From NCBI GenBank assembly GCA_965238175.1, contig CBDEGZ010000003.1:2272001-2336000 (forward strand): 64,000 bases of DNA, read 5' to 3'. The translations under genes and the position numbers were made by a program. Below the pieces are notes generated by a model that made no database searches, was not told where the DNA came from, and was given only the letters and a program-made list of their open reading frames with translations. Position 1 is the first letter of the stretch; each line of letters opens with the position of its first letter. The DNA is from Gammaproteobacteria bacterium (GTDB taxonomy: Bacteria > Pseudomonadota > Gammaproteobacteria > CAJXQU01). This document shows positions 15,044 through 59,091 of this stretch, one piece after another.

Positions 15044-16269
15044 TGTAGAAATTCAGACTTGATCTGACAGTTACCCCTTTTTCTGTAACTGACTGTCAGG
15101 TTAAGTTTAGTTCAAAAACTTTTCCTTCCAGATAGCTTGTCCGTCGATGAGTGTTTCCATCGGCGTCCTCCCGCAGCACATTTTGCCTTGGTGAGTTCGT
15201 TGAGTATTGTATTTGAGCAACCATTCGTCAAGGTCGAGTTGCAGTTCATCAATCGATTGGTAAATTTTCTTACGCAAAGCGACTTGATAAAACTCATTGA
15301 GGATCGTCTTATGGAATCGCTCACAAATACCATTCGTCTGAGGTGATTTGACCTTGGTTTTGGTGTGTTCGATATTGTTCAACGCCATATAAAGCTGATA
15401 ATCATGCTGGTCAGCTCGCCCACAATACTCCGTCCCTCTATCTGTCAAAATGCGCAACATAGGCAAACGTTGTTGTTCGTAGAATGGGAGGACGCGGTCA
15501 TTGAGCATGTCAGCTGCCGTAATCGGTGTTTTAGTCGGGTACAGTTTCGCGTGAGCGACCTTGCTGTAAGTATCAACAAACGTTTGTTGATAAACCCGAC
15601 CAATGCCTTTGAAAGTACCGACATAGTAAGTATCTTGCGAGCCAAGATAACCAGGGTGTGCCGTCTCTATCTCGCCACAAGCCTCATCGTCGTCTTTCTT
15701 GCGTTCCATCGCCGCGACTTGAGACTCAGTGAGGATCAAGCCTTCACCAGCTACCTTATCAGACAATGCCTTCAGGCGATCTTTAAAGCAAGCAAGACCA
15801 TGACGAAGCCAGATACAACGAACGCCACTGGGTGAGACAAATGTTCCCCGTTTGCGCAGCTCGTTACTGGTGCGCGTTTGACCATGTGCGGGCTCTTCCA
15901 GTGCATACTCGAGCACAACGGTTTCAATAGCCGGGTCGATTCTGTTTTTAAGATTTGGGGTACGCCGATTACGATCAAACAAGGCTTCTACACCGCCTTC
16001 ATCAGCCGCTTCTTTGTAGCGATAAAATGTATCTCTGGACAAACCCATCATCTTGCAGGCTTTTGAGACATTGCCGAGTTCTTCAGCGAGATTGAGTAGA
16101 CCAACTTTATGTTTTATAACTTTGTCATTAGTATGAATCATGAGAGTTACCTCTTTGTGTTTTGATGTTTACGTTGCAGTTACATCAAAGCGGGTAACTC
16201 TCACTAAATCAAGCGTCGCTACGCTCCGCTTGATTTAGTGATGTGTCAGATTGGGTCTAAACTTCTACA
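15044..16269 (-). mobile_element. IS481-family insertion sequence, 1226 bp, complete
   Basis: TGT...ACA ends; 26-bp imperfect IRs (21/26) at 15044-15069 and 16244-16269; 7-bp target duplication GCTGATA at 15037-15043 and 16270-16276. Confidence 0.93.
15107..16141 (-). CDS. IS481-family DDE transposase
   Basis: N-terminal HTH (GNVSKACKMMGLSRDTFYRY), SQDTYYVG, LTDRGTEYCG, PQTNGICERFHKT. Confidence 0.95.
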   Translation of the reverse strand: MIHTNDKVIKHKVGLLNLAEELGNVSKACKMMGLSRDTFYRYKEAADEGGVEALFDRNRRTPNLKNRIDPAIETVVLEYALEEPAHGQTRTSNELRKRGTFVSPSGVRCIWLRHGLACFKDRLKALSDKVAGEGLILTESQVAAMERKKDDDEACGEIETAHPGYLGSQDTYYVGTFKGIGRVYQQTFVDTYSKVAHAKLYPTKTPITAADMLNDRVLPFYEQQRLPMLRILTDRGTEYCGRADQHDYQLYMALNNIEHTKTKVKSPQTNGICERFHKTILNEFYQVALRKKIYQSIDELQLDLDEWLLKYNTQRTHQGKMCCGRTPMETLIDGQAIWKEKFLN

Positions 16270-16884
16270 GCTGATACGAAAAGTATTCAGTACCTTCTTG
16301 ATATATTTAAGAATCAAATAGAATTATTCAATATATTTGAAAAGGATCACTTAACAGGTCTTTATAACCGGCTAACTTTCGATGAAAAAATGATGCAACT
16401 CATTCAGTTAAATCATGTTGACGAAAGTCGTGAAATTAAAGATGATTCCTGTAATTGGCTAGCTATTCTTGATATCGATCATTTTAAGAAAATAAATGAT
16501 CAATACGGTCACATGTATGGTGATGAAGTTTTATTACTCTTCTCTGAGATCATGCAAGACACTTTTCGTTTTAATGATTTACTGTTCCGATACGGCGGCG
16601 AGGAATTTGTAGTCTGTCTCTTCAATGTCAACAAGGAAGGTGCAATCACCGCGCTTGAACGTTTCCGAAGAGCCATCGAGGATTATGCCCTTCCTTCCAA
16701 CAGAGGGATCACTGTCAGTATTGGTTTGGCAAAAGTATTGGACAAAGAGCTCCCGTCAAATCTTCTTGATCGTGCCGACATCGCTTTATATGAGGCTAAA
16801 GAAACCGGGCGTAATAAATTATGTGTCTCCAGACTTGAAGAAAGTACAATCTCAGAATCTGATGATATGGTTGAGCTTTTTTGA

Positions 16885-17277
16885 TCAATCGTACTTAATA
16901 TATTTAAACCGTGGATCGTCTGGCGTTCCTTCTAATCCACTTTCTTCATCAAGCCCAGGTTGCCACATGATCACTTCTTCAATTTTTTTCGCCAATCCAA
17001 AATCTTTATTAGTAATTCCTTTCGCAGCATGATTGATTAGCTTCACGGTAACAAAAGCGTATGACACTGTTAGATCCGGGTGGTGAAATCCTGCCTCAGC
17101 CAAATGACCCACCGTATTCACTACCATTAAGGTTCCCTTCCAACCTGATGTCTTATATTTACGACGGATCCAACCATTCTCATAACTCCATTCAGGCAGT
17201 TGATCTTCAAGATAAGCGACAATTTCTTCATCCGCATAAGTTTCGTCTTTTTCTTTTTTACGCCACTGCTGCGCCAT
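16885..17277 (-). CDS. Pterin-4a-carbinolamine dehydratase family protein (H4MPT cluster-associated)
   Basis: LPEW, AEAGFHHPDL, HAAKGITNKDFGLAKKIE. Confidence 0.88.
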   Translation of the reverse strand: MAQQWRKKEKDETYADEEIVAYLEDQLPEWSYENGWIRRKYKTSGWKGTLMVVNTVGHLAEAGFHHPDLTVSYAFVTVKLINHAAKGITNKDFGLAKKIEEVIMWQPGLDEESGLEGTPDDPRFKYIKYD

Positions 17278-17965
17278 AGCCCTCTTCCTCTTTATGAATA
17301 CTGGTGCGGATCTCTTTTAAAAGCGACTCATCCAGATCAGTTTTTCGTTTATGTCCGACACAGAGTGCACCTCTAAAACCCAGGTAATCTGGCTGATATT
17401 GAACTAAAGGTACAATATCTTCTTTTCTCAGAGAACCGGCTAAACCTGTGATCAACTTTTGCTGTTTTGCTTTCACAATAAACTGACCGATTTGATGAAC
17501 ATCCATTACCTCTCGTAATGATCCTTTAGTTTTATTTGCGGTATCCAACATAATTCCTGCAAGTCCAGCATCAACGACAGAATCGATGATATGTTCGCCA
17601 GGATACTGATCTGCAAACACTACAATAATAATGCCTTTAGTAGCTTGCCGACTTATAGTCCAGAGTAAGTCATCAACATTTTCACTTAAAGGATCAAAAA
17701 GGCCGACCTTAACTAAATCGACACCTGTATCCGCAACTCTTCTGACCATATCTGCTACGCGTAAAGGTTCGCATGGAAGATCACCCACTGTTGCACTCAC
17801 CAAACGTTCACCATTTATCTTACCGACAACTTCTCGCATGACTTTAAAAGAAACAGCCCCTAATGCCCCTTGCTCTGGTTCTTTCAAATCGATAATGTCA
17901 ACACCACCCTGCATCGCGACCATCGCTTCATCAGCAGATCGCACACTGGCTAGAAATCCTGTCAT
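17258..17965 (-). CDS. mfnB: (5-formylfuran-3-yl)methyl phosphate synthase (MfnB/Orf22), methanofuran/methylofuran biosynthesis
   Basis: LASVRSADEA, DIIDLKEPEQGALGA, SATVGD, MLDTANK, GLAGSL, PDYLGFRGALC. Confidence 0.88.
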   Translation of the reverse strand: MTGFLASVRSADEAMVAMQGGVDIIDLKEPEQGALGAVSFKVMREVVGKINGERLVSATVGDLPCEPLRVADMVRRVADTGVDLVKVGLFDPLSENVDDLLWTISRQATKGIIIVVFADQYPGEHIIDSVVDAGLAGIMLDTANKTKGSLREVMDVHQIGQFIVKAKQQKLITGLAGSLRKEDIVPLVQYQPDYLGFRGALCVGHKRKTDLDESLLKEIRTSIHKEEEGYGAAVA

Positions 17966-18549
17966 GTAGTTTGCTCCTCTCCATCATTTTTGTTTTGTTC
18001 TTGGCGAAAATGGTCAACCTTATCCATTAACCAACCCCAAGCCTCTAATTCCTGTTCACCGGCGGTTTTATCGATCGCAATTTTAAGGTATTCAATCTCA
18101 GTAGCCACCTTTTCAGTTGATAACATGTGTAAACGACTAGTGAGTATGGCAGCTTCAAGTACGGCCGATTTTGCTCGATTAAAGCCTTTAAACGGTTTAT
18201 GGTTTTCATGGTTGTTAATTTTGCAGAAAAAACGAGGTCTTACATCATCTTTCTCGATATGATCTACCTCAAGCTCCATATGCGATAAGGTATCTTCAAG
18301 TCTGGCGCCGTTAATTTCTTTAGCTTCAACGGTTGGCCAGTTATAGTGACCTGTCAAACAGCCTGCAATCACAGCAACATTATCAGTAAGATTAATCACG
18401 GCTTGATTAGTTCGTTCCAAATTTGCCAACGTCGTCGAAGGGCGAAAAGGCGATAAGACAATAAACCCATCGATTTCCTGATATCCGAGCGGTGCGATTT
18501 GATTTGACCCATCCTCATTCCGAGTAATAATAACGGCTTCGTAGATCAT
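17962..18549 (-). CDS. DUF447 family protein (Orf19 of methylotroph H4MPT clusters)
   Basis: MIYEAVIIT..IAPLG, PFRPSTTLANL, GFNRAKSAVLEAAILTSRL, IDKTAG. Confidence 0.85.
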   Translation of the reverse strand: MIYEAVIITRNEDGSNQIAPLGYQEIDGFIVLSPFRPSTTLANLERTNQAVINLTDNVAVIAGCLTGHYNWPTVEAKEINGARLEDTLSHMELEVDHIEKDDVRPRFFCKINNHENHKPFKGFNRAKSAVLEAAILTSRLHMLSTEKVATEIEYLKIAIDKTAGEQELEAWGWLMDKVDHFRQEQNKNDGEEQTT

Positions 18550-18579
18550 CTTTTTCTCTTTGTACTGAGCTTTGTTTAG

Positions 18580-20025
18580 TTAACGTGCTTTTTTGTTTTT
18601 TTGTGCTTTTTTACGGCGCTCTTTTCGCGCTTTCATCGTTGCGCCTCCAGCTTTATGCAACATATGTGGGTCTGCTTTACCATTATCAAGAGGCGATTTA
18701 TAGGCTACCCCCCAGTCCAACTCTTCATCCTGCACATAACGCTTCCCTAACTGCCAGGCTATTTGTGCACGGGCAAGTTCAACACCAATGTAATAAGCGT
18801 GTGGAGCATCTTCTTCCAGCGTTTTCAAATGTTCGAATAACGCAAAGGGATCGGTGTCGGTTTTCAAGCCATCACGATTGTAAATATGAATACCCTCCTC
18901 TGTCACCTGGATCCGATAATTAGCATCTTTAATCTGTGATGCAGTTTCGTTAATTTCTTCCAGATCATATGGGAATGGCTTGCGCTCATGAAGCCCTGTC
19001 AAACCTGCACTATAACCCTTCGGCAAACTCGTATCTTCACGTGCACGGAACATAATCCGACGCCCCAAATCGAGTTCTGCAACACTCTTATTTGCATGCT
19101 CACTGACCTCCGTCGTCAATAAGTTTGTGATGCGCATTTCAGACATCATGCCTAACATCATCGTATTCAGGCCAACCGTGTCTGCTTCAGTCAATTCTGA
19201 AAGATTTCCGGTACCCATCATGATTTCGATATCGGGGTATTTATCTCGCAGTTGCTGATATCTAACAATTGATCGGGTAAATCCAAAATGAACAGGATCA
19301 AGAATGCTATCAGCAATAAAATCTTTACCCTTTTTCTGCATCGTGTCGATAGCTCGGTATAAGGATTTCGGATCGTCCGGAGATTCCGGGATCAAAACCG
19401 GTATGGATCCGACTTCATCAGCAACCCAAAGTGTGCTCTCCTTTAAACTCAATAGATAGTGCGCACCTGCCTGACCACCTCGAACTAATTGATCGGGATC
19501 AACCGAATCTAAACTGACGGTATAACCTTCACTTACAAGCGTCTTAATGATCTCTTCCATTTGCGGAAAATCACGTCCAGGTAAACACCCAACGTCAATT
19601 ACATCCGCACCATCTGCTTTATAAGACACTGCTTGCGCGAGAACATTTTCAATACTGACATCTGGTGCATCAACAATTTCTGCAAAGATCCGTACATCAT
19701 ATTGGCTTAAATCCGGTGGTTCTGCTCCCTTTCCAAAATACACAGGTAGATCTTTTAGATCCTTAGGGCCACGCACCACAGGCACGCCGAGCTTATTGCT
19801 AAGCTCTTCGACATCACCTGCACAAAGACCTGGCACAATAATTCGATCTGCATTCCTGGAATCATCCAAACGACGTTGGATCATCTCAGTTGTCATTAAG
19901 GCCGCAACGCTAACCCCAAGGTTATGGATCTCATAGGTAAAATCCTCACCCTCTATTGAGGCCATGACTTTTCCGAGACTTTTCTTGGCAAGTTTGCCAG
20001 TCAACATAAGAAGATGTTCAGACAT
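18580..20025 (-). CDS. Dihydropteroate synthase-like protein (Orf20, DUF6513/DUF4346), tetrahydromethanopterin biosynthesis
   Basis: LTGKLA, GPKDLKDLP, IFAEIVDAP, GADVIDVG, GTGNLSELTEAD, HAYYIGVELARAQIAWQLGKRYVQDE. Confidence 0.85.
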   Translation of the reverse strand: MSEHLLMLTGKLAKKSLGKVMASIEGEDFTYEIHNLGVSVAALMTTEMIQRRLDDSRNADRIIVPGLCAGDVEELSNKLGVPVVRGPKDLKDLPVYFGKGAEPPDLSQYDVRIFAEIVDAPDVSIENVLAQAVSYKADGADVIDVGCLPGRDFPQMEEIIKTLVSEGYTVSLDSVDPDQLVRGGQAGAHYLLSLKESTLWVADEVGSIPVLIPESPDDPKSLYRAIDTMQKKGKDFIADSILDPVHFGFTRSIVRYQQLRDKYPDIEIMMGTGNLSELTEADTVGLNTMMLGMMSEMRITNLLTTEVSEHANKSVAELDLGRRIMFRAREDTSLPKGYSAGLTGLHERKPFPYDLEEINETASQIKDANYRIQVTEEGIHIYNRDGLKTDTDPFALFEHLKTLEEDAPHAYYIGVELARAQIAWQLGKRYVQDEELDWGVAYKSPLDNGKADPHMLHKAGGATMKARKERRKKAQKNKKAR

Positions 20026-27116: not shown

Positions 27117-27211
27117 TTATTTAACCTGATGTGATGGTCTCCTCCCCCTAACGGCATCTAGGTGCCATGATTGAACTGACATACACACAATCAAAAGAGG
27201 AGAAGACCAAA

Positions 27212-28225
27212 ATGAAGACTACAACAATCGGGTTAGACATAGCAAAAAACGTATTTCATGCTGTCTGCTGTAATCAACAAGGGCGTATAATCAAAAAGAA
27301 AATGTTAAAGCGAGCGCAGGTACTCTCCTTTTTTCAATCTCAACCTCCTTGTTTAGTCGCAATAGAATCTTGTGCAACGTCACAGTATTGGGCCCGAGCG
27401 ATACAACAACAGGGACATCAGGTGAAATTACTACCACCTCAGCATGTTAACGCATTTCTAATCGGCAATAAGAATGATTATAACGATGCCTTGGCCATCG
27501 CCGTTGCTGCGAAACAACCTCATTTAAAAAGTGTGGGCATTAAATCAGTTGAGCAACAAGACAACCAGGCACAACATAAAGCAAGAGACTTAGCGGTCAG
27601 ACAAAGAACCGCATTATGTAACCAAATGAGAGCGCTTGTTGCAGAATATGGCATTAGCCTTCGTCCCGGCCTAAATACCCTACGTCAATCTATCCCGTTG
27701 CTATTAAGTGATGAGAACGAACGGTTGTCCGTTACTTTCAAAAGGATACTGCGCCAGCTAAAGGAACAATGGCAATCACTTGATGCCTGTATTGCGACAT
27801 TTGACCAATTGATCATTCAATCGGCAAAAAACAATGCGATTTGCCAACGCTTACAAACTATTCCAGGGTTTGGGCCGATGGTCTCGAGCGCGTATTTTAA
27901 TGAAGTGGGAAACGGCGCTCATTATCACAAAGGGCGCGATGTGTCCGCCTCATTAGGACTTGTTCCACGACAGTACAGTAGTGGTGGTAAAGAGGTGCTA
28001 CTGGGGATCAGTAAACGCGGCAATAAATACCTTCGTTGTTTGTTAATTCTAGGCGCGAAGGCCGTGGTATCAAGAGCCAAAACGAAAGGCGATAAACTGA
28101 GTCAATGGATTAATCGTTTAGTTGAGACGCGGGGGCATAATCGAGCGTGTGTGGCGTATGCCAACAAAATGGCAAGAATGGCCTGGGCTATAACGGTTTC
28201 TGGTGATGACTACTCACCGGCCTAA
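27212..28225 (+). CDS. IS110-family DEDD recombinase/transposase
   Basis: GLDIAK, AIESCA, KNDYNDA (RuvC DEDD); TIPGFG; GLVPRQYSSGGK (catalytic Ser); SD GAGGAG before ATG 27212. Confidence 0.95.
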   Translation: MKTTTIGLDIAKNVFHAVCCNQQGRIIKKKMLKRAQVLSFFQSQPPCLVAIESCATSQYWARAIQQQGHQVKLLPPQHVNAFLIGNKNDYNDALAIAVAAKQPHLKSVGIKSVEQQDNQAQHKARDLAVRQRTALCNQMRALVAEYGISLRPGLNTLRQSIPLLLSDENERLSVTFKRILRQLKEQWQSLDACIATFDQLIIQSAKNNAICQRLQTIPGFGPMVSSAYFNEVGNGAHYHKGRDVSASLGLVPRQYSSGGKEVLLGISKRGNKYLRCLLILGAKAVVSRAKTKGDKLSQWINRLVETRGHNRACVAYANKMARMAWAITVSGDDYSPA

Positions 28226-47725: not shown

Positions 47726-48349
47726 CTATACATTAAATGACCTTCCAATCACATAAAGCTCACTGGAACGATCTCGCGAAGATTTTGGTTTCTTTATAAC
47801 CACATTTTTAAATTGGCTACGCACATTTTTGGTAAATTCATCAAACCCTTCGCCCTGAAATGCTTTAGTAATAAAATCACCTTGCGGTTTTAAAATCTGA
47901 TTTGCACAATCCAACGCCAATTCTATAAGCGCCATACCTCTAGGTTGATCAATAGATTTCATACCACTCATATTGGGTGCCATATCTGAAATAACAAGGT
48001 CTACCTTGTTGTTGTCTATACTATTTAAGAGTTGATCAAGCACAGATTGTTCCAAAAAATCACCTTGAATAATAGTTGTGTTTTTAAGTGGGGTCATTTC
48101 GAGAAGATCTAAGGCGTAGACGTGACCAGTTTCGCCAACTAAATTTGAAGCTATCTGAGTCCATCCACCTGGCGCAGCACCGAGATCGACAATGTTCATT
48201 CCTGACTTAATGAGTCGGGTTTTATCCTGAATTTCCAGCAGTTTATAAGCAGCTCGTGATCGATAGCCGTCTTTTCTCGACGCTAGAACGTATTGATCTG
48301 ATTCATGCTCTTTAAGCCACCTTTGACTACTTCCGCCTTTCTTACTCGT
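47726..48349 (-). CDS. rlmE: 23S rRNA Um2552 methyltransferase RlmE (probable ACG start at 48349)
   Basis: Open frame upstream of the ORF-track ATG encodes [20 protein letters not shown]; [24 protein letters not shown]. Confidence 0.92.
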
Positions 48350-54680: not shown

Positions 54681-54731
54681 TCTTGAATTAAGGAGCATAA
54701 AAATCATATTTTTTATGCTCCTTAATCAAGA
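54681..54731. terminator. Long hairpin, probable terminator of the TonB receptor gene
   Basis: TTAAGGAGCATAAAAA / TTTTTATGCTCCTTAA perfect 16-bp stem. Confidence 0.65.
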
Positions 54732-54781: not shown

Positions 54782-56836
54782 TTAAAATTGAAGTTTAAAC
54801 CCAACGATAAGAGATCGCCCTTGTTGAGGAGCAATATCTTTCACAAATGAAGTGTGCTGGCGTATTTCTTCGTCTAATAGATTTGTACCTCTCATGAATA
54901 AGTTGAAATTCAATAGCTCTTTGTTAATCACCTCATAACTGAGACCTAAGGTAATATCCGTATAACTATCAGTAGAAGTTTCTAATTGAGCTAACTTTGT
55001 TTGTCGCGCCGTATGATTAGCATCAAAATACAGCTCGAAAGGTCCACGATGATAATCAAGACCTAAACCAACACGCCAAGGCGTGATCCGAGGTAAATTC
55101 TGGTTGTCCTCTAACTTTCCACGGACATAATCTGCCCACATTTTTAGATCTAGAGATTCATCAATATGATCGAAAATATTTAACCTGGTCTGTAGTTCTA
55201 TGCCATAGAACAGTGCATCAGATTGGATATGATTGACCAAAAGTAGTGCTTCCTCATCCGTTACTATTTGAGCGGTCTCTAAAAAATCATCTTCAACTCG
55301 ATCAGAAATACCATCACTATTTCGATCATTTTCACTGGTATAAATATAATCATCAATTTTTGAAACAAACAGGTTAGCTTCGCCAGTTAATCTTCCGTCT
55401 GTTTTATTAAAAATAAGGTCCAAAGAATGTGTGGTTTCCTCTTTAAGATCCAAATTGCCAATTTCAAAAGTATTAGTCGCTAAATGTGCGCCATTAGAAA
55501 ACAATTCTTCTATTGCTGGTGCTCTCTGTGATCGTGTAAAACTAAGACGCGTGTTCAAACTTTCCGTCCAGTGAAAACCTAAACCTGCTGAAAAACTAAA
55601 CAAGTCATGTGACACACTTGATACACTTTCGGAGTCAGTGGTTTGATGTTCATATCGTCCACCAACCTCGATATGTAACTGTTCAAACTCAGCCCTTTCC
55701 AAAACAAAAATACCGACTGAATTAAGGCTTGAATTAGGTAAGAATGCTTCTTCTCCAGAAGTGCTGAGCTTTCTGTTTTGGTGTTGAAATCCAAGAACGC
55801 CCTCCCAACCTGCAAGTGATTGATGTAATAGCTCCACCCGACCCTGCAATTCTTTATTATCGAGTTGTGTTCCGATCTCATCACCTTCTAGCTCCTCATG
55901 AGTGTGATCGTTATAGCCCCAACGAGATTTGATCAAAGTGAAACCTGGAAATGGATCTTCCAGTTCGCTTTTTATATCAAACCGTGTTTGTTCTTGTTTT
56001 ATACGAACACTTTCTTCCTCATGTTCTCCATCCTCTTCTTCATCCTCTTCTTCATGCCCCGGAATACCGTAATTATTGTCAAAATTATTAATTGAAAAAC
56101 CGATAAAGCCGCGGTCATGTACCCAGGATGATCCAAAGGTTGTATCATGAGATTCAATATTGGAATTTTGTAGAGTACCTCTAATGTCTCCTTCTTCTGG
56201 GACGCTTAGTGCAAAACCCGGTATATCAATATCTTGAGTCTTACGATGCGTAGTATCTAAATGAAACGTAAATTCATCGTAACCCACATTGAAACGAAGA
56301 CCACCCGTGAGATCATGGGATGCAGAATCAAAATGAGAATATAAATCACCCTCTAAACCTTCAGGCACATAATCGAGGATCTGATTAGAAATAACGTTTA
56401 TCAGACCTCCACTAGCACTGCTGCCATAAAGCAATGTCGCTGGGCCTCTTAATATTTCTATCCTGTCAACGAATATTGCATTAATCGCAACACCATGATC
56501 TGGACTTATAGTGGAAACATCCAAGCTACCAATCCCATCACTCAGAACTCCGACGCGAACACCACTTTGCCCTCGGATCACGGGGCGGCCAACACCCGGA
56601 CCAAAACCAGTAGAACTAATCCCTGGTGACTGTCCAACAAGATCAGAGATAGTATTTTTATTTCCTCTATCTAGTTCTTCATCCAAAAGTACTGAAACGG
56701 GTTTTAAAATATGCTGACTTGACGTTGATAAAGGATCAGATTGCACTTCCAGATCTTGTAAATGTAAAGTCTCTTCAGCAAACACGAACACACTAAACGA
56801 CAGCATAAATACCGCCGAATATTTTTTAGCAAACAT
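54782..56836 (-). CDS. TonB-dependent receptor, ZnuD-like (metal uptake)
   Basis: Plug motifs GRPVIRG, SPDHGV, IEILRGPATLLYGS; His/acidic loop GHEEEDEEEDGEHEEE; ELFSNGAHLAT, RQHTSFVKD; terminal F. Confidence 0.85.
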   Translation of the reverse strand: MFAKKYSAVFMLSFSVFVFAEETLHLQDLEVQSDPLSTSSQHILKPVSVLLDEELDRGNKNTISDLVGQSPGISSTGFGPGVGRPVIRGQSGVRVGVLSDGIGSLDVSTISPDHGVAINAIFVDRIEILRGPATLLYGSSASGGLINVISNQILDYVPEGLEGDLYSHFDSASHDLTGGLRFNVGYDEFTFHLDTTHRKTQDIDIPGFALSVPEEGDIRGTLQNSNIESHDTTFGSSWVHDRGFIGFSINNFDNNYGIPGHEEEDEEEDGEHEEESVRIKQEQTRFDIKSELEDPFPGFTLIKSRWGYNDHTHEELEGDEIGTQLDNKELQGRVELLHQSLAGWEGVLGFQHQNRKLSTSGEEAFLPNSSLNSVGIFVLERAEFEQLHIEVGGRYEHQTTDSESVSSVSHDLFSFSAGLGFHWTESLNTRLSFTRSQRAPAIEELFSNGAHLATNTFEIGNLDLKEETTHSLDLIFNKTDGRLTGEANLFVSKIDDYIYTSENDRNSDGISDRVEDDFLETAQIVTDEEALLLVNHIQSDALFYGIELQTRLNIFDHIDESLDLKMWADYVRGKLEDNQNLPRITPWRVGLGLDYHRGPFELYFDANHTARQTKLAQLETSTDSYTDITLGLSYEVINKELLNFNLFMRGTNLLDEEIRQHTSFVKDIAPQQGRSLIVGFKLQF

Positions 56837-56904
56837 AAACTATTCTCCTACTCACTCGCCTATCACACTAGACGAATAAGATAATTAACTTTGAAATATG
56901 AAGG

Positions 56905-57195
56905 TTAAGTTGGAGAGTTAGCTGGAGGGGCCCGACTGAAGAAATTGTAATGAAAAACGGGTGTAAATACTGATAAGGATTTTTCTTCATGAAAATAATC
57001 AAAAAGAATATCTGAAATTACCAGTGGTGGTGTAAGACAGGCCTGATCATTATTCTGCCCGGCCAAATAGAGAGAACATTTATGATCATGATGCTCAACA
57101 GCATGATCGACTGTATGCATTGCCGTTAATATTTGCAGTCCTAGGAAGGAGAACAACAACAGCAATATCAAATAATGTTTTTTATACACTTTCAT
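56905..57195 (-). CDS. His-rich, DUF2946-like leader peptide with C-terminal RAPP motif
   Basis: Signal/TM segment, MHTVDHAVEHHDHKC, C-terminal SRAPPANSPT; ends 68 bp upstream of the TBDT. Confidence 0.75.
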   Translation of the reverse strand: MKVYKKHYLILLLLFSFLGLQILTAMHTVDHAVEHHDHKCSLYLAGQNNDQACLTPPLVISDILFDYFHEEKSLSVFTPVFHYNFFSRAPPANSPT

Positions 57196-57291
57196 TCAAT
57201 CAATTATTCGTTAAAGTACACTGGATCATCATTAAACACCCCTAACTGATTACGAAGAAATTTAAATTAATACGTAAGTAATTATTATATA

Positions 57292-57368
57292 TGGGGTGAA
57301 CGACGGGGCTCGAACCCGCGACCACCGGAATCACAATCCGGGGCTCTACCAACTGAGCTACGCTCACC
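57292..57368 (-). tRNA. tRNA-His (GTG)
   Basis: GGTGAGCGTAGCTCAGTTGGTAGAGC..ATT-GTG-ATT..GGTTCGAG..CACCCCA; G-1 and encoded CCA. Confidence 0.96.
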
Positions 57369-57436
57369 ATTGTTTTCAACGACGATTTTAGTATGTCTGG
57401 TTGTAAACGACAAGCTGTCCAAACATAAATAACGTC

Positions 57437-57513
57437 TGGCGCGCCCGGCAGGACTCGAACCTGCAACCCCCGGCTTAGAAGGCCGGTGCTCTATCCGGTT
57501 GAGCTACGGGCGC
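57437..57513 (-). tRNA. tRNA-Arg (TCT)
   Basis: GCGCCCGTAGCTCAACCGGATAGAGCACCGGC-CT-TCT-AA-GCCGG..GGTTCGAG..GCGCCA. Confidence 0.96.
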
Positions 57514-57545
57514 TTAGAGTACCTTTGTAATTTGGACCTTCGAAA

Positions 57546-57622
57546 TGGTCGGGGCAGAGGGATTCGAACCCCCGACCCTCTGCTCCCAAAGCAGATGCGC
57601 TACCAGGCTGCGCTATGCCCCG
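57546..57622 (-). tRNA. tRNA-Pro (TGG)
   Basis: CGGGGCATAGCGCAGCCTGGTAGCGCATCTGC-TT-TGG-GA-GCAGA..GGTTCGAATCC..CCCCGACCA. Confidence 0.96.
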
Positions 57623-57640
57623 ACTGATGAGTCGGTCGGA

Positions 57641-57669
57641 ATAATACGCAGCCCTGCGGTCTGCGTCAA
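57641..57669 (-). promoter_or_regulatory. Sigma-70 promoter of the tRNA Pro-Arg-His operon
   Basis: TTGACG-N17-TATTAT followed by a GC-rich discriminator. Confidence 0.75.
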
Positions 57670-57690
57670 CAATATTCCCACCAGACACAG

Positions 57691-59091
57691 CTATTTCCGT
57701 CGCCAACTCGTCCCTTCTGTATTGTCTTCCAGAGTGATCCCTTGGTCATTCAATAAATCGCGTATTCGATCAGATTCTGACCAGTCTTTTTGAGCCCGTG
57801 CAACGTTGCGTTGTTGAACATAATCCTCGACCTGGCGAGATGATAAAGCACCTTCTCTTTGATCATTTTCACCACGTAAGAAATATTCAGGATCACCTCC
57901 AAGCAGACCAAGAATACGGCCCAAACTTTTCAACCGCCCAGCCAGCCTAGTCGCTTTTTCAGGATCTTCTCGATTTGCATTTAGATCACGCGCCAGATCA
58001 AATAATACCGACAATGCATTTGGGGTATTGAAATCATCATCCATTGCAGCTTTAAACAGAGCTTCATATTCACTATCTTCTCCTATTTCTGCAATTTCAA
58101 CTCCACGCAGCGCAGTATACAGTCGTGTAAGTGCACTTTTTGCATTATCCAGATGTTCATTCGAATAATTTAGCGGACTACGATAATGGCTGGTGAGAAT
58201 GAAATAACGTATTACTTCTGCAGGATATTGTTCGAGAACATCACGAATAGTAAAAAAATTGCCCAATGATTTAGACATTTTCTCATCATCGACACGTACA
58301 AAACCATTATGCATCCATAGATTTGCAAAAGGTTCACCGGTTGCACCTTCGGATTGGGCGATTTCATTTTCATGATGAGGAAATTGTAAATCCTGACCAC
58401 CTCCGTGAATATCAAAGTTATTCCCTAGCTGACAGGTCGACATCGCCGAGCATTCTATATGCCATCCAGGACGGCCATTCCCCCAGGGCGATTCCCAGCT
58501 TGGTTCATCGGGCTTGGCAGCTTTCCATAAAACAAAATCCAAAGGATCATCTTTGGCTTCATCAACTGCAACCCGTTCTCCAACGCGTAGATCTTCTACA
58601 TTCTTGCCGGAGAGCTTGCCGTATTCAGCAAACTCACTGATATCGTAATAAACATCACCATTAGCCGCTGGATAGGCTTTTTTATTTTCGATTAGGGTTT
58701 CTATCATGCTAATGATGTCATCCACATGTTCGGTTGCTTTGGGTTCTTGATCAGGCCTTTTAACACCTAGCGCATCCGCATCTTCATTCATATAGGTAAT
58801 GCAGCGTTCGGTAAGCTCCGTGATACTTTCGCCATTTTCATTGGCTCTGGCGATAATTTTGTCATCAATATCCGTAATATTGCGCACATAGGTAACTTCA
58901 TAACCACTCACACGTAAGTAGCTTGCGACAACATCAAAAACCACCATAACCCGTGCGTGACCGATATGACAAAAATCATAGACCGTCATACCACAAACAT
59001 ATAAACCCACTTTGCCAGGTTCGATTGTTTTTAATGCTTCTTTTTTTCTGGTTAAGGTATTATAAATATTCAGCACAGCGAGCTTTCTCAT
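57691..59091 (-). CDS. cysS: Cysteine-tRNA ligase (start 59091 or GTG 59076)
   Basis: [35 protein letters not shown]. Confidence 0.97.

Follow-up and report, generated by a model that had tools for sequence, protein, structure and literature searches.

Can a gene for zinc uptake be switched by a ribosome that stalls just in front of it? To our knowledge, bacterial zinc uptake is explained almost wholly by Zur repression, and the question is raised by a locus in a 64,000-nucleotide stretch of a gammaproteobacterial genome (GenBank assembly GCA_965238175.1, contig CBDEGZ010000003.1, positions 2,272,001 to 2,336,000 of the forward strand; below, the window means this whole stretch, and positions are counted from its first letter). 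Here an open reading frame (ORF) of 96 amino acids (aa), with a predicted export segment, a histidine-rich motif and the sequence RAPP close to its end, stands directly before the gene for a ZnuD-type TonB-dependent receptor. The original prediction read this ORF as a candidate metal sensor that works by translation arrest. Having analysed the locus and its relatives, we consider it reasonably probable that the ORF controls the receptor gene behind it in cis, as a metal-sensing translation-arrest leader like CruR and CutF.

Two systems serve as references throughout. CruR of Bordetella pertussis (Bp2923, a DUF2946 protein) is encoded upstream of the TonB-dependent transporter BfrG; its regulation requires RAPP, copper relieves the arrest and the output is Rho-dependent termination (PMC9426467). 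In vitro work has demonstrated the RAPP-dependent arrest of CruR, in which the P and A sites hold the two Pro codons, and RAPP is described as a robust arrest core that is depleted from proteomes (PMC12992588). CutF of Rhodobacter capsulatus is a DUF2946-like protein encoded upstream of cutO (PMC9973294; bioRxiv 10.1101/2025.02.05.636593); it is exported by Sec and senses copper in the periplasm, and the stalled ribosome melts a stem-loop that shields the Shine-Dalgarno (SD) sequence of the next gene (PMC9973294). As these sources present them, the known metal-sensing arrest peptides, CruR and CutF, are copper-responsive, and nickel or cobalt is only suggested for relatives.

Anatomy of the leader

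The leader ORF occupies 56905..57195 on the minus strand (stop codon included); its translation begins MKVYKKHYLILLLLFSFLGLQILTAMHTVDHAVEHHDHKCSLYLAGQ and ends FFSRAPPANSPT, followed by the stop. The layout is that originally described, with an N-terminal hydrophobic helix, then HTVDHAVEHHDHKCSLY, a poorly conserved linker and finally SRAPP five codons ahead of the stop. The predicted export or anchor helix (residues 8-25, YLILLLLFSFLGLQILTA; 57121..57174, minus strand) consists of 18 hydrophobic residues and comes after K2, K5 and K6. An AlphaFold2 model of the leader has a helix over residues 2-34, with a block pLDDT (predicted local distance difference test) of 87-98 for residues 1-30; since it is confident over these residues only, the model was kept out of fold searches. 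The candidate metal-binding motif, H27-x3-H31-x2-E34-H35-H36-D37-H38-K-C40-S-L-Y43 (57067..57117, minus strand), reads in full H27-TVD-H31-AVE-H35-H36-D-H38-K-C40-S-L-Y43, and in the model its HHDH is predicted at the turn between helices 2-34 and 39-52, past the confident residues 1-30. The CxxC motif is thereby broken to C40-S-L-Y43, as had been noted.

The RAPP arrest motif (residues 88-91 of 96; 56923..56934, minus strand) is conserved among relatives of the leader. It is encoded by CGG GCC CCT CCA (56934-56923) within the C-terminus F-F-S-R88-A-P-P91-ANSPT-stop (TAA), and the spacing from C40 to R88 is 48 residues. The window has 238 stop-to-stop frames that reach 60 aa or more, 33,960 aa together, and among them this is the sole R[AG]PP, with 0.19 occurrences expected from composition in the 18,969 aa of window frames of at least 150 aa; the RAPP of the leader exceeds chance. 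The leader comes directly first on the same strand as the receptor gene, from which it is separated by 68 nt (56837-56904), so that both the position of RAPP and the distance of the ORF from a receptor with a His/acidic loop are as originally given.

Relatives of the leader

An initial homologue search with the window ORF found a single relative. An exhaustive profile search of 1.84 billion representatives (E <= 1e-3) gave 10 proteins, one of which (P0009) was dropped as a low-complexity false match; the remaining nine, 91-116 aa long, all carry RAPP at the end, which bears out its supposed conservation. A wider, word-seeded profile search listed 120 proteins, mostly of 93 aa, and no precomputed Pfam domain is recorded on any of these 120. 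The set finally collected, which includes the window ORF and leaves out P0009 and P0018, has 129 members, giving a family of at least that size.

Across this set the aligned Cys is invariant (129/129), Q21, H27, P90 and P91 are each kept in at least 90% of members, and residues 50-85 are poorly conserved. The stall motif is RAPP in 48, RGPP in 45 and R-x-x-x-PP in 30, with none in the remaining 6, and in all 93 members with R[AG]PP the Arg lies 47-49 residues, mostly 48, from the Cys (the first Cys being counted). The Cys motif is CxxC in 104, CxxY in 16 (window ORF included), CxxF in 4, CxxH in 3 and of other form in 2. The 14 residues before the Cys contain on average 3.5 His in CxxY members, as against 2.1 in CxxC members. 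Four proteins (P0050, P0109, P0117 and P0126; 119-130 aa) have an extra His-rich insertion before the conserved Cys, with 11-16 His in total and further Cys, and end in RSRSPP, not RAPP; these may be higher-capacity or differently tuned sensors.

A link to DUF2946, the family of CruR, had been proposed for a search with hidden Markov models (HMMs), and it was found in the relatives and not in the window ORF itself. The ORF has no match to DUF2946 (PF11162) at E <= 1, and its Pfam and NCBIfam scans returned noise only (ANKH, DUF2607 at E 0.18, and DgcJ). When the 129 collected members were scanned individually, 21 matched DUF2946 at E <= 0.01 (best 5.1e-5), sub-threshold, and 3 matched DUF2607 at the same E value; no member matches any other Pfam family. 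Relative P0003 reaches 21 bits on PF11162, under the gathering score of 23.7 bits, while on DUF2607 (PF10795, gathering score 24 bits) the window ORF scores 12.5 bits (E 0.18) and the best relative, P0006, 22.9 bits, both sub-gathering. RAPP of the window ORF and of two relatives aligns to positions 96-99 of the 100 in the DUF2607 profile, and atlas features put clusters of both DUF2946 and DUF2607 among the closest that carry a name, at 0.92. A tblastn search with the window ORF against plasmids gave no match. Of the features that define CruR/CutF-like proteins, the ORF lacks the HMM score and the CxxC/CxxxC motif, and it has the C-terminal RAPP, the spacing of about 45-49 residues and the first position before a metal-homeostasis gene. 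From its sequence, we take the window ORF to be a genuine gene that is peripherally related to the CruR/CutF family.

The receptor gene

The gene behind the leader (54782..56836, minus strand) encodes a receptor of 684 aa with Plug and TonB-barrel domains (Pfam). Its best NCBIfam model is ZnuD, NF038289, matched over the full length (433.8 bits, E 1.4e-129), and among proteins of solved structure Neisseria meningitidis ZnuD is the closest (PDB 4rdr, E 6.7e-63). The high-affinity zinc ligands of ZnuD are Asp-99 and His-100 as well as Glu-340 and His-499 (PMC4557270), which with an offset of 14 are D113, H114, E354 and H513 of the 4rdr chain; to these four align D113, H114, E315 and H451 of the window receptor. 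A locus search with a 6-sequence alignment yielded two further loci, L001 and L002, from 411 pattern matches, both from gammaproteobacterial metagenome-assembled genomes, so that the DNA context described below covers 3 of the 129 family members. The four zinc ligands are invariant across the window receptor and its L001 and L002 orthologues. The receptor also has a His/Glu-rich loop (residues 261-275, GHEEEDEEEDGEHEEE), which is Glu-rich rather than Asp-rich and is longer and His-richer in the two orthologues, and it matches the copper-receptor model TIGR01778 with an E value of 2.5e-13 only. On these alignments the receptor is ZnuD-type with its zinc ligands kept, in agreement with the original assignment. 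No znuABC or zur genes are found within the window.

RNA between leader and receptor

How could a stall in the leader reach the receptor? The SD sequence of the receptor gene, GGAGA (56844..56848, minus strand; ATG at 56836-56834), has its complement UCUCC (56912..56916, minus strand) 7 nt past the second Pro codon of RAPP, and the two pair with a computed probability of about 1.0 in the window, enclosing a predicted 12-bp intergenic hairpin (56851..56880, minus strand). GGAGA-UCUCC pairing recurs in all three loci, with UCUCC starting behind the second Pro codon at a distance of 7 nt in the window and L001 and of 8 nt in L002, and the hairpin has counterparts in a 9-bp core in L002 and an interrupted form in L001. 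Counted from the Arg codon, the SD pairs with nt 13-30 at a probability of 1.00 in the window, L001 and L002; this observed pairing is reached by 5, 0 and 0 of 300 dinucleotide shuffles, respectively, and a pairing of 0.5 by 33, 10 and 19 of 300. In two loci UCUCC is read as part of Ser-Pro codons and in the third as part of Phe-Ser codons, so what is kept is the nucleotide sequence, not the amino acids.

In toeprints a stalled ribosome protects about 15 nt downstream of the P-site codon, so with Pro90 and Pro91 in the P and A sites UCUCC would be covered. To mimic such a ribosome, the first 21-24 nt were barred from pairing, which raised the probability of unpaired SD bases from about 0 to 0.36-0.76 in the window and L001. 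Because the gap is short and carries this anti-SD helix, we favour an output of the CutF type: the arrangement suggests that control is probably translational, by SD unmasking, and not by the Rho-dependent route of CruR. Two other devices were considered for this region and rejected, namely an intrinsic terminator, as there is no U-run behind the hairpin, and a riboswitch, as an Rfam search of 56700-57750 gave only three tRNAs above the gathering score, its other matches being sub-threshold.

Transcription of the locus

The window, L001 and L002 have a common gene order of cysS, tRNA-Pro, tRNA-Arg, tRNA-His, leader and receptor, with carA further on. The tRNA-Pro(UGG), tRNA-Arg(UCU) and tRNA-His(GUG) genes identified by Rfam (57292..57622, minus strand) lie directly upstream of the leader, and the same cluster is found at 5602-5940 in L001 and 5437-5793 in L002, the gap from tRNA-His to the leader being 96 nt in the window, 48 nt in L001 and about 150 nt in L002. 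Consensus scans place promoter-like sites at 57669-57641 and 57413-57385 in the window, and in the three loci such sites are conserved before tRNA-Pro and before tRNA-His; on the coding strand of the gap between tRNA-His and the leader the scans detect no promoter-like or terminator-like site in any of the three. For these reasons the leader is likely to be co-transcribed with the tRNA genes. The amino acids of the three tRNAs (Pro, Arg, His) are also the key residues of the leader, and the RAPP Arg codon is CGG or CGC, unread by tRNA-Arg(UCU); the match is probably a coincidence.

The statement that no Zur or Fur box lies upstream holds for an E. coli-type consensus, which may not be that of the host: in the 96-nt gap of the window the best matches are 10/19 (Fur) and 12/23 (Zur), which is at the level of chance, and no Zur 15-mer with two or fewer mismatches to such a consensus is present near the locus. 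Matches of 13/19 (Fur) and 14/23 (Zur) in the AT-rich 48-nt gap of L001 were rejected, as they are not conserved in the window. At the other end of the unit, after the receptor stop and before a response-regulator/GGDEF gene, a perfect 16+16-nt palindrome of 38 nt (54688..54725, TTAAGGAGCATAAAAA ... TTTTTATGCTCCTTAA) is a likely terminator; a consensus terminator scan does not call it.

Proposed mechanism

In the mechanism that we propose, the leader would be transcribed with or just behind the tRNA-Pro/Arg/His genes, with no metal-responsive promoter of its own, and its N-terminal helix would bring the nascent chain to the Sec translocon. The ribosome would then stall at RAPP with Pro90 in the P site and Pro91 in the A site. 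About 30-40 residues of the nascent chain are inside the exit tunnel at a stall, so the His/Cys/Tyr cluster (residues 27-43), a fixed 48 residues upstream, would be outside the tunnel and at or beyond the membrane. The stalled ribosome would cover UCUCC 7 nt downstream, GGAGA would be freed and the receptor would be made. Metal binding to the exposed cluster, most likely of Zn(II), would fold or pull the chain and thereby release the arrest; the leader would be completed, the anti-SD/SD helix would re-form and receptor synthesis would drop. As the receptor is an uptake gene, the sign has to be that of CruR, with metal releasing the arrest. What we infer is that arrest occurs, which metal is bound, in which direction the response goes and that sensing takes place in the periplasm. 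The original interpretation is thereby supported in part, and the SD pairing and the probable co-transcription with the tRNA genes go beyond it. The metal is probably zinc, in view of the ligands kept in the receptor, the loss of the second Cys, the extra His and the weak link to DUF2607/ZrgD, which belongs to a zinc-uptake operon.

Several observations weigh against this mechanism or parts of it. No recognisable SD precedes the leader start at 57196-57210 in the window, 5975-5988 in L001 or 5925-5943 in L002; the receptor genes have GGAGA, and the missing SD would fit a leader that is translated weakly, as CruR reportedly is. The stall mimic leaves the SD of L002 mostly still paired (unpaired 0.02-0.45), the whole 146-nt fold is of ordinary stability (z = -0.89, with 31 of 200 shuffles folding as well), and in most shuffles the SD bases are paired with something (mean about 0.8). 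The anti-SD and SD bases are invariant across the three loci, hence there is no covariation, and as these loci share synteny they represent two independent lineages at most. The window ORF does not match DUF2946, and its receptor, at 434 bits, falls below the NF038289 cut-off of 950 bits. Finally, zinc is deduced from the receptor alone, while 104 of the 129 collected members have CxxC and the characterised CruR and CutF are copper-responsive.

What else could the locus be? The last point leads to a leader that works in the same way and senses copper (or nickel or cobalt) ahead of a receptor importing that metal and not zinc. Besides the copper response of the characterised relatives and the prevalence of CxxC, this would agree with the Pfam links of the family, which are to DUF2946 and DUF2607 only, with the His-only CutF-like clusters before HupE/UreJ that point to nickel or cobalt (PMC9973294), and with the conserved A-H-A-V-E-H, which could form an N-terminal His site after signal-peptide cleavage. 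We nevertheless find another metal unlikely, though it deserves to be taken seriously: all four ZnuD zinc ligands and the His/acidic loop are kept in the receptor, the score on the copper-receptor model is poor, the second Cys is replaced by Tyr with His enriched before the remaining Cys, and DUF2607 is ZrgD of a Zur-regulated zinc-uptake operon. A different question is how the stall is read out. As in CruR, the stalled ribosome could block Rho, with release permitting termination before the receptor gene and SD pairing being secondary. That mechanism has been demonstrated for CruR-bfrG (PMC9426467), and C exceeds G between RAPP and the SD in all three loci (21/15 in the window, 25/15 and 25/16 in the other two), which counts in its favour and against SD unmasking. 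Yet the intergenic region is 68 nt here and 162 nt in CruR, most of it is occupied by the 12-bp hairpin and the SD helix, and the anti-SD pairing is kept in the three loci, so a transcriptional output is also something we do not expect, with about the same degree of doubt as for another metal.

The remaining explanations give up metal-controlled arrest altogether. The ORF might encode a small accessory protein that is stable in the membrane or periplasm and serves as metallochaperone or receptor partner, like the uncharacterised ZrgD or CzcI, with no regulatory role for its RAPP; the confident model helix over residues 2-34 and the helix-turn-helix around the His cluster would suit such a protein. 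It would then be odd for RAPP/RGPP to be fixed 47-49 residues from the Cys in 93 of 129 members across a poorly conserved stretch (residues 50-85), RAPP is strongly avoided in ordinary proteins (PMC12992588), and CruR and CutF are reported as undetectable or quickly degraded; we regard this explanation as improbable. Least probable by far is a secretion monitor of the SecM/ApdA type, in which arrest would report Sec activity and not metal. The first RAPP peptides described, ApcA, ApdA and ApdP, are encoded upstream of protein-localisation genes (PMC12992588), and the leader does have a predicted export helix, but the gene downstream is a metal receptor and not sec or yidC, and the His/Cys cluster is conserved at a fixed distance from RAPP.

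The mechanism of metal-controlled arrest with SD unmasking can be taken further, tentatively. The leader might be the first zinc-responsive arrest peptide, a membrane-tethered His5-Cys-Tyr cluster that reads zinc outside the cytoplasm and unmasks the SD of a ZnuD-type receptor, its mRNA being made constitutively by tRNA-operon read-through, so that control would be entirely post-transcriptional and Zur-independent; by extension, DUF2607/ZrgD would be the same device. This full version strikes us as possible and doubtful. If true, zinc-coupled ribosome stalling would add a fast, Zur-independent layer of control, and the family, with its 129 or more small proteins, would gain a function, as possibly would ZrgD/DUF2607. 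At about 360 nt from the start codon of the leader to that of the receptor, the system is compact and could show how metal on a nascent chain is converted into release of an arrest; the strict 48-residue spacing sets a geometric constraint on any model of that release.

Other features of the window

Elsewhere in the window, the rlmE ORF (47726-48340, minus strand) is 157 aa as listed and matches only positions 53-204 of the 209 of RlmE; its frame runs on uninterrupted as far as the greA stop and codes there for an RlmE-like N-terminus that has no ATG, GTG or TTG, a sign that the start codon is non-canonical or has been lost. Next to the gene of an IS481-family transposase (15107-16141, minus strand) is a 164-aa GGDEF fragment (16390-16884, plus strand) whose similarity to diguanylate cyclase models is confined to their C-terminal part; this fragment may be a gene cut by the IS481-family insertion; a separate IS110-family transposase lies at 27167-28225. 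At 17258-20025 (minus strand), beside an ordinary folP, are genes similar to (5-formylfuran-3-yl)methyl phosphate synthase and to dihydropteroate synthase (TIGR00284), of the kind seen in methanopterin-type cofactor pathways, which hints at C1 metabolism in the source gammaproteobacterium.

Comparison with known systems

The comparison with CruR that the original prediction drew is sound, as both are small ORFs with a Cys-centred motif and an export helix (predicted in the window leader), stand first before a TonB-dependent receptor and carry RAPP a few residues from the stop. In CruR the CxxC is at 90-93 and RAPP at 139-142 (PMC9426467), a spacing of 49 from the first Cys and 46 from the second, compared with 48 in the window leader, and the logic expected for an uptake gene is the same, with metal releasing the arrest and expression falling. 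The differences are also clear. Where CruR has CxxC the window leader has CSLY preceded by HxxxHxxEHHDH, and CruR matches PF11162 while the window ORF has no match at E <= 1. CruR is 145 aa long, its intergenic region measures 162 nt, its output depends on Rho and a PepSY-type gene comes third, whereas the window has a leader of 96 aa, a 68-nt intergenic region with an SD-sequestering helix, and no third gene. The receptors discussed with CruR are copper-type (OprC-like), and the window receptor is ZnuD-type.

In its predicted output the leader is closer to CutF, with which it would share Sec export, a metal motif about 45 residues before a C-terminal Pro-rich stall site, a short intergenic region, an anti-SD stem-loop melted by the stalled ribosome and sensing of metal outside the cytoplasm. 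Most CutF-like intergenic regions are shorter than 100 nt, and the authors consider that the 45-residue spacing places the metal motif at or beyond the membrane (PMC9973294). CutF has CxxxC and a PPP-type motif where the window leader has CSLY and RAPP, and in CutF copper prolongs stalling so that a detoxifying oxidase is switched on, whereas the sign would have to be reversed for the window uptake receptor. A catalogue of CutF-like proteins lists Cys, His and mixed sites, including His-only clusters before HupE/UreJ (PMC9973294).

Small ORFs with RAPP/RGPP upstream of TonB-dependent receptors are already a surveyed class in Gram-negative bacteria (PMC12992588), and the leader resembles it as a small protein with a predicted localisation signal that carries RAPP close to its C-terminal end and is encoded before such a receptor; it differs from ApcA, ApdA and ApdP, whose genes stand upstream of one for protein localisation. 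Zinc, ZnuD-type receptors and the CxxY/His-rich motif all go unmentioned in the main text of the survey. The word zinc likewise occurs 0 times in the main texts of PMC9426467 and PMC9973294, and 0 occurrences are given for bioRxiv 10.1101/2025.02.05.636593. Literature searches for a RAPP arrest peptide with zinc, or for ZnuD with ribosome stalling, found no such system described, although supplementary tables may contain the leader family, and no paper naming both BfrG and ZnuD was found.

On the zinc side, ZrgD (DUF2607), about 100 aa long with a single transmembrane helix and of unknown function, comes from the Zur-regulated zrg zinc-uptake operon of Vibrio (PMC9817125, PMC9820375), in which zrgD appears to be promoter-proximal, as the reporter construct is named P1475-1455. 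Size and a single predicted membrane helix are shared with the leader, as would be the apparently promoter-proximal place in a zinc-uptake operon. The zrg operon is Zur-regulated, whereas no Zur box of the E. coli type was found near the leader, and the DUF2607 scores are sub-gathering, the comparison being by profile. The window receptor resembles ZnuD in its plug and 22-strand barrel, in the four high-affinity ligands Asp, His, Glu and His, and in a His/acidic cluster in the loop-3 region (PMC4557270, PMC2895646). ZnuD has an Asp-rich loop, is Zur-regulated and has no leader described in these sources, while the window receptor loop is Glu-rich. BfrG was considered as the ZnuD homologue of B. 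pertussis and set aside, as that homologue adjoins znuABC and zur, according to the ZnuD paper. RAPP leaders before TonB receptors (PMC12992588) and His-only CutF-like sensors (PMC9973294) are thus already in print. What is new here is a CxxY/His-rich leader, unannotated by Pfam, before a receptor that keeps the zinc ligands of ZnuD, with probable SD unmasking and probable transcription from a tRNA operon.

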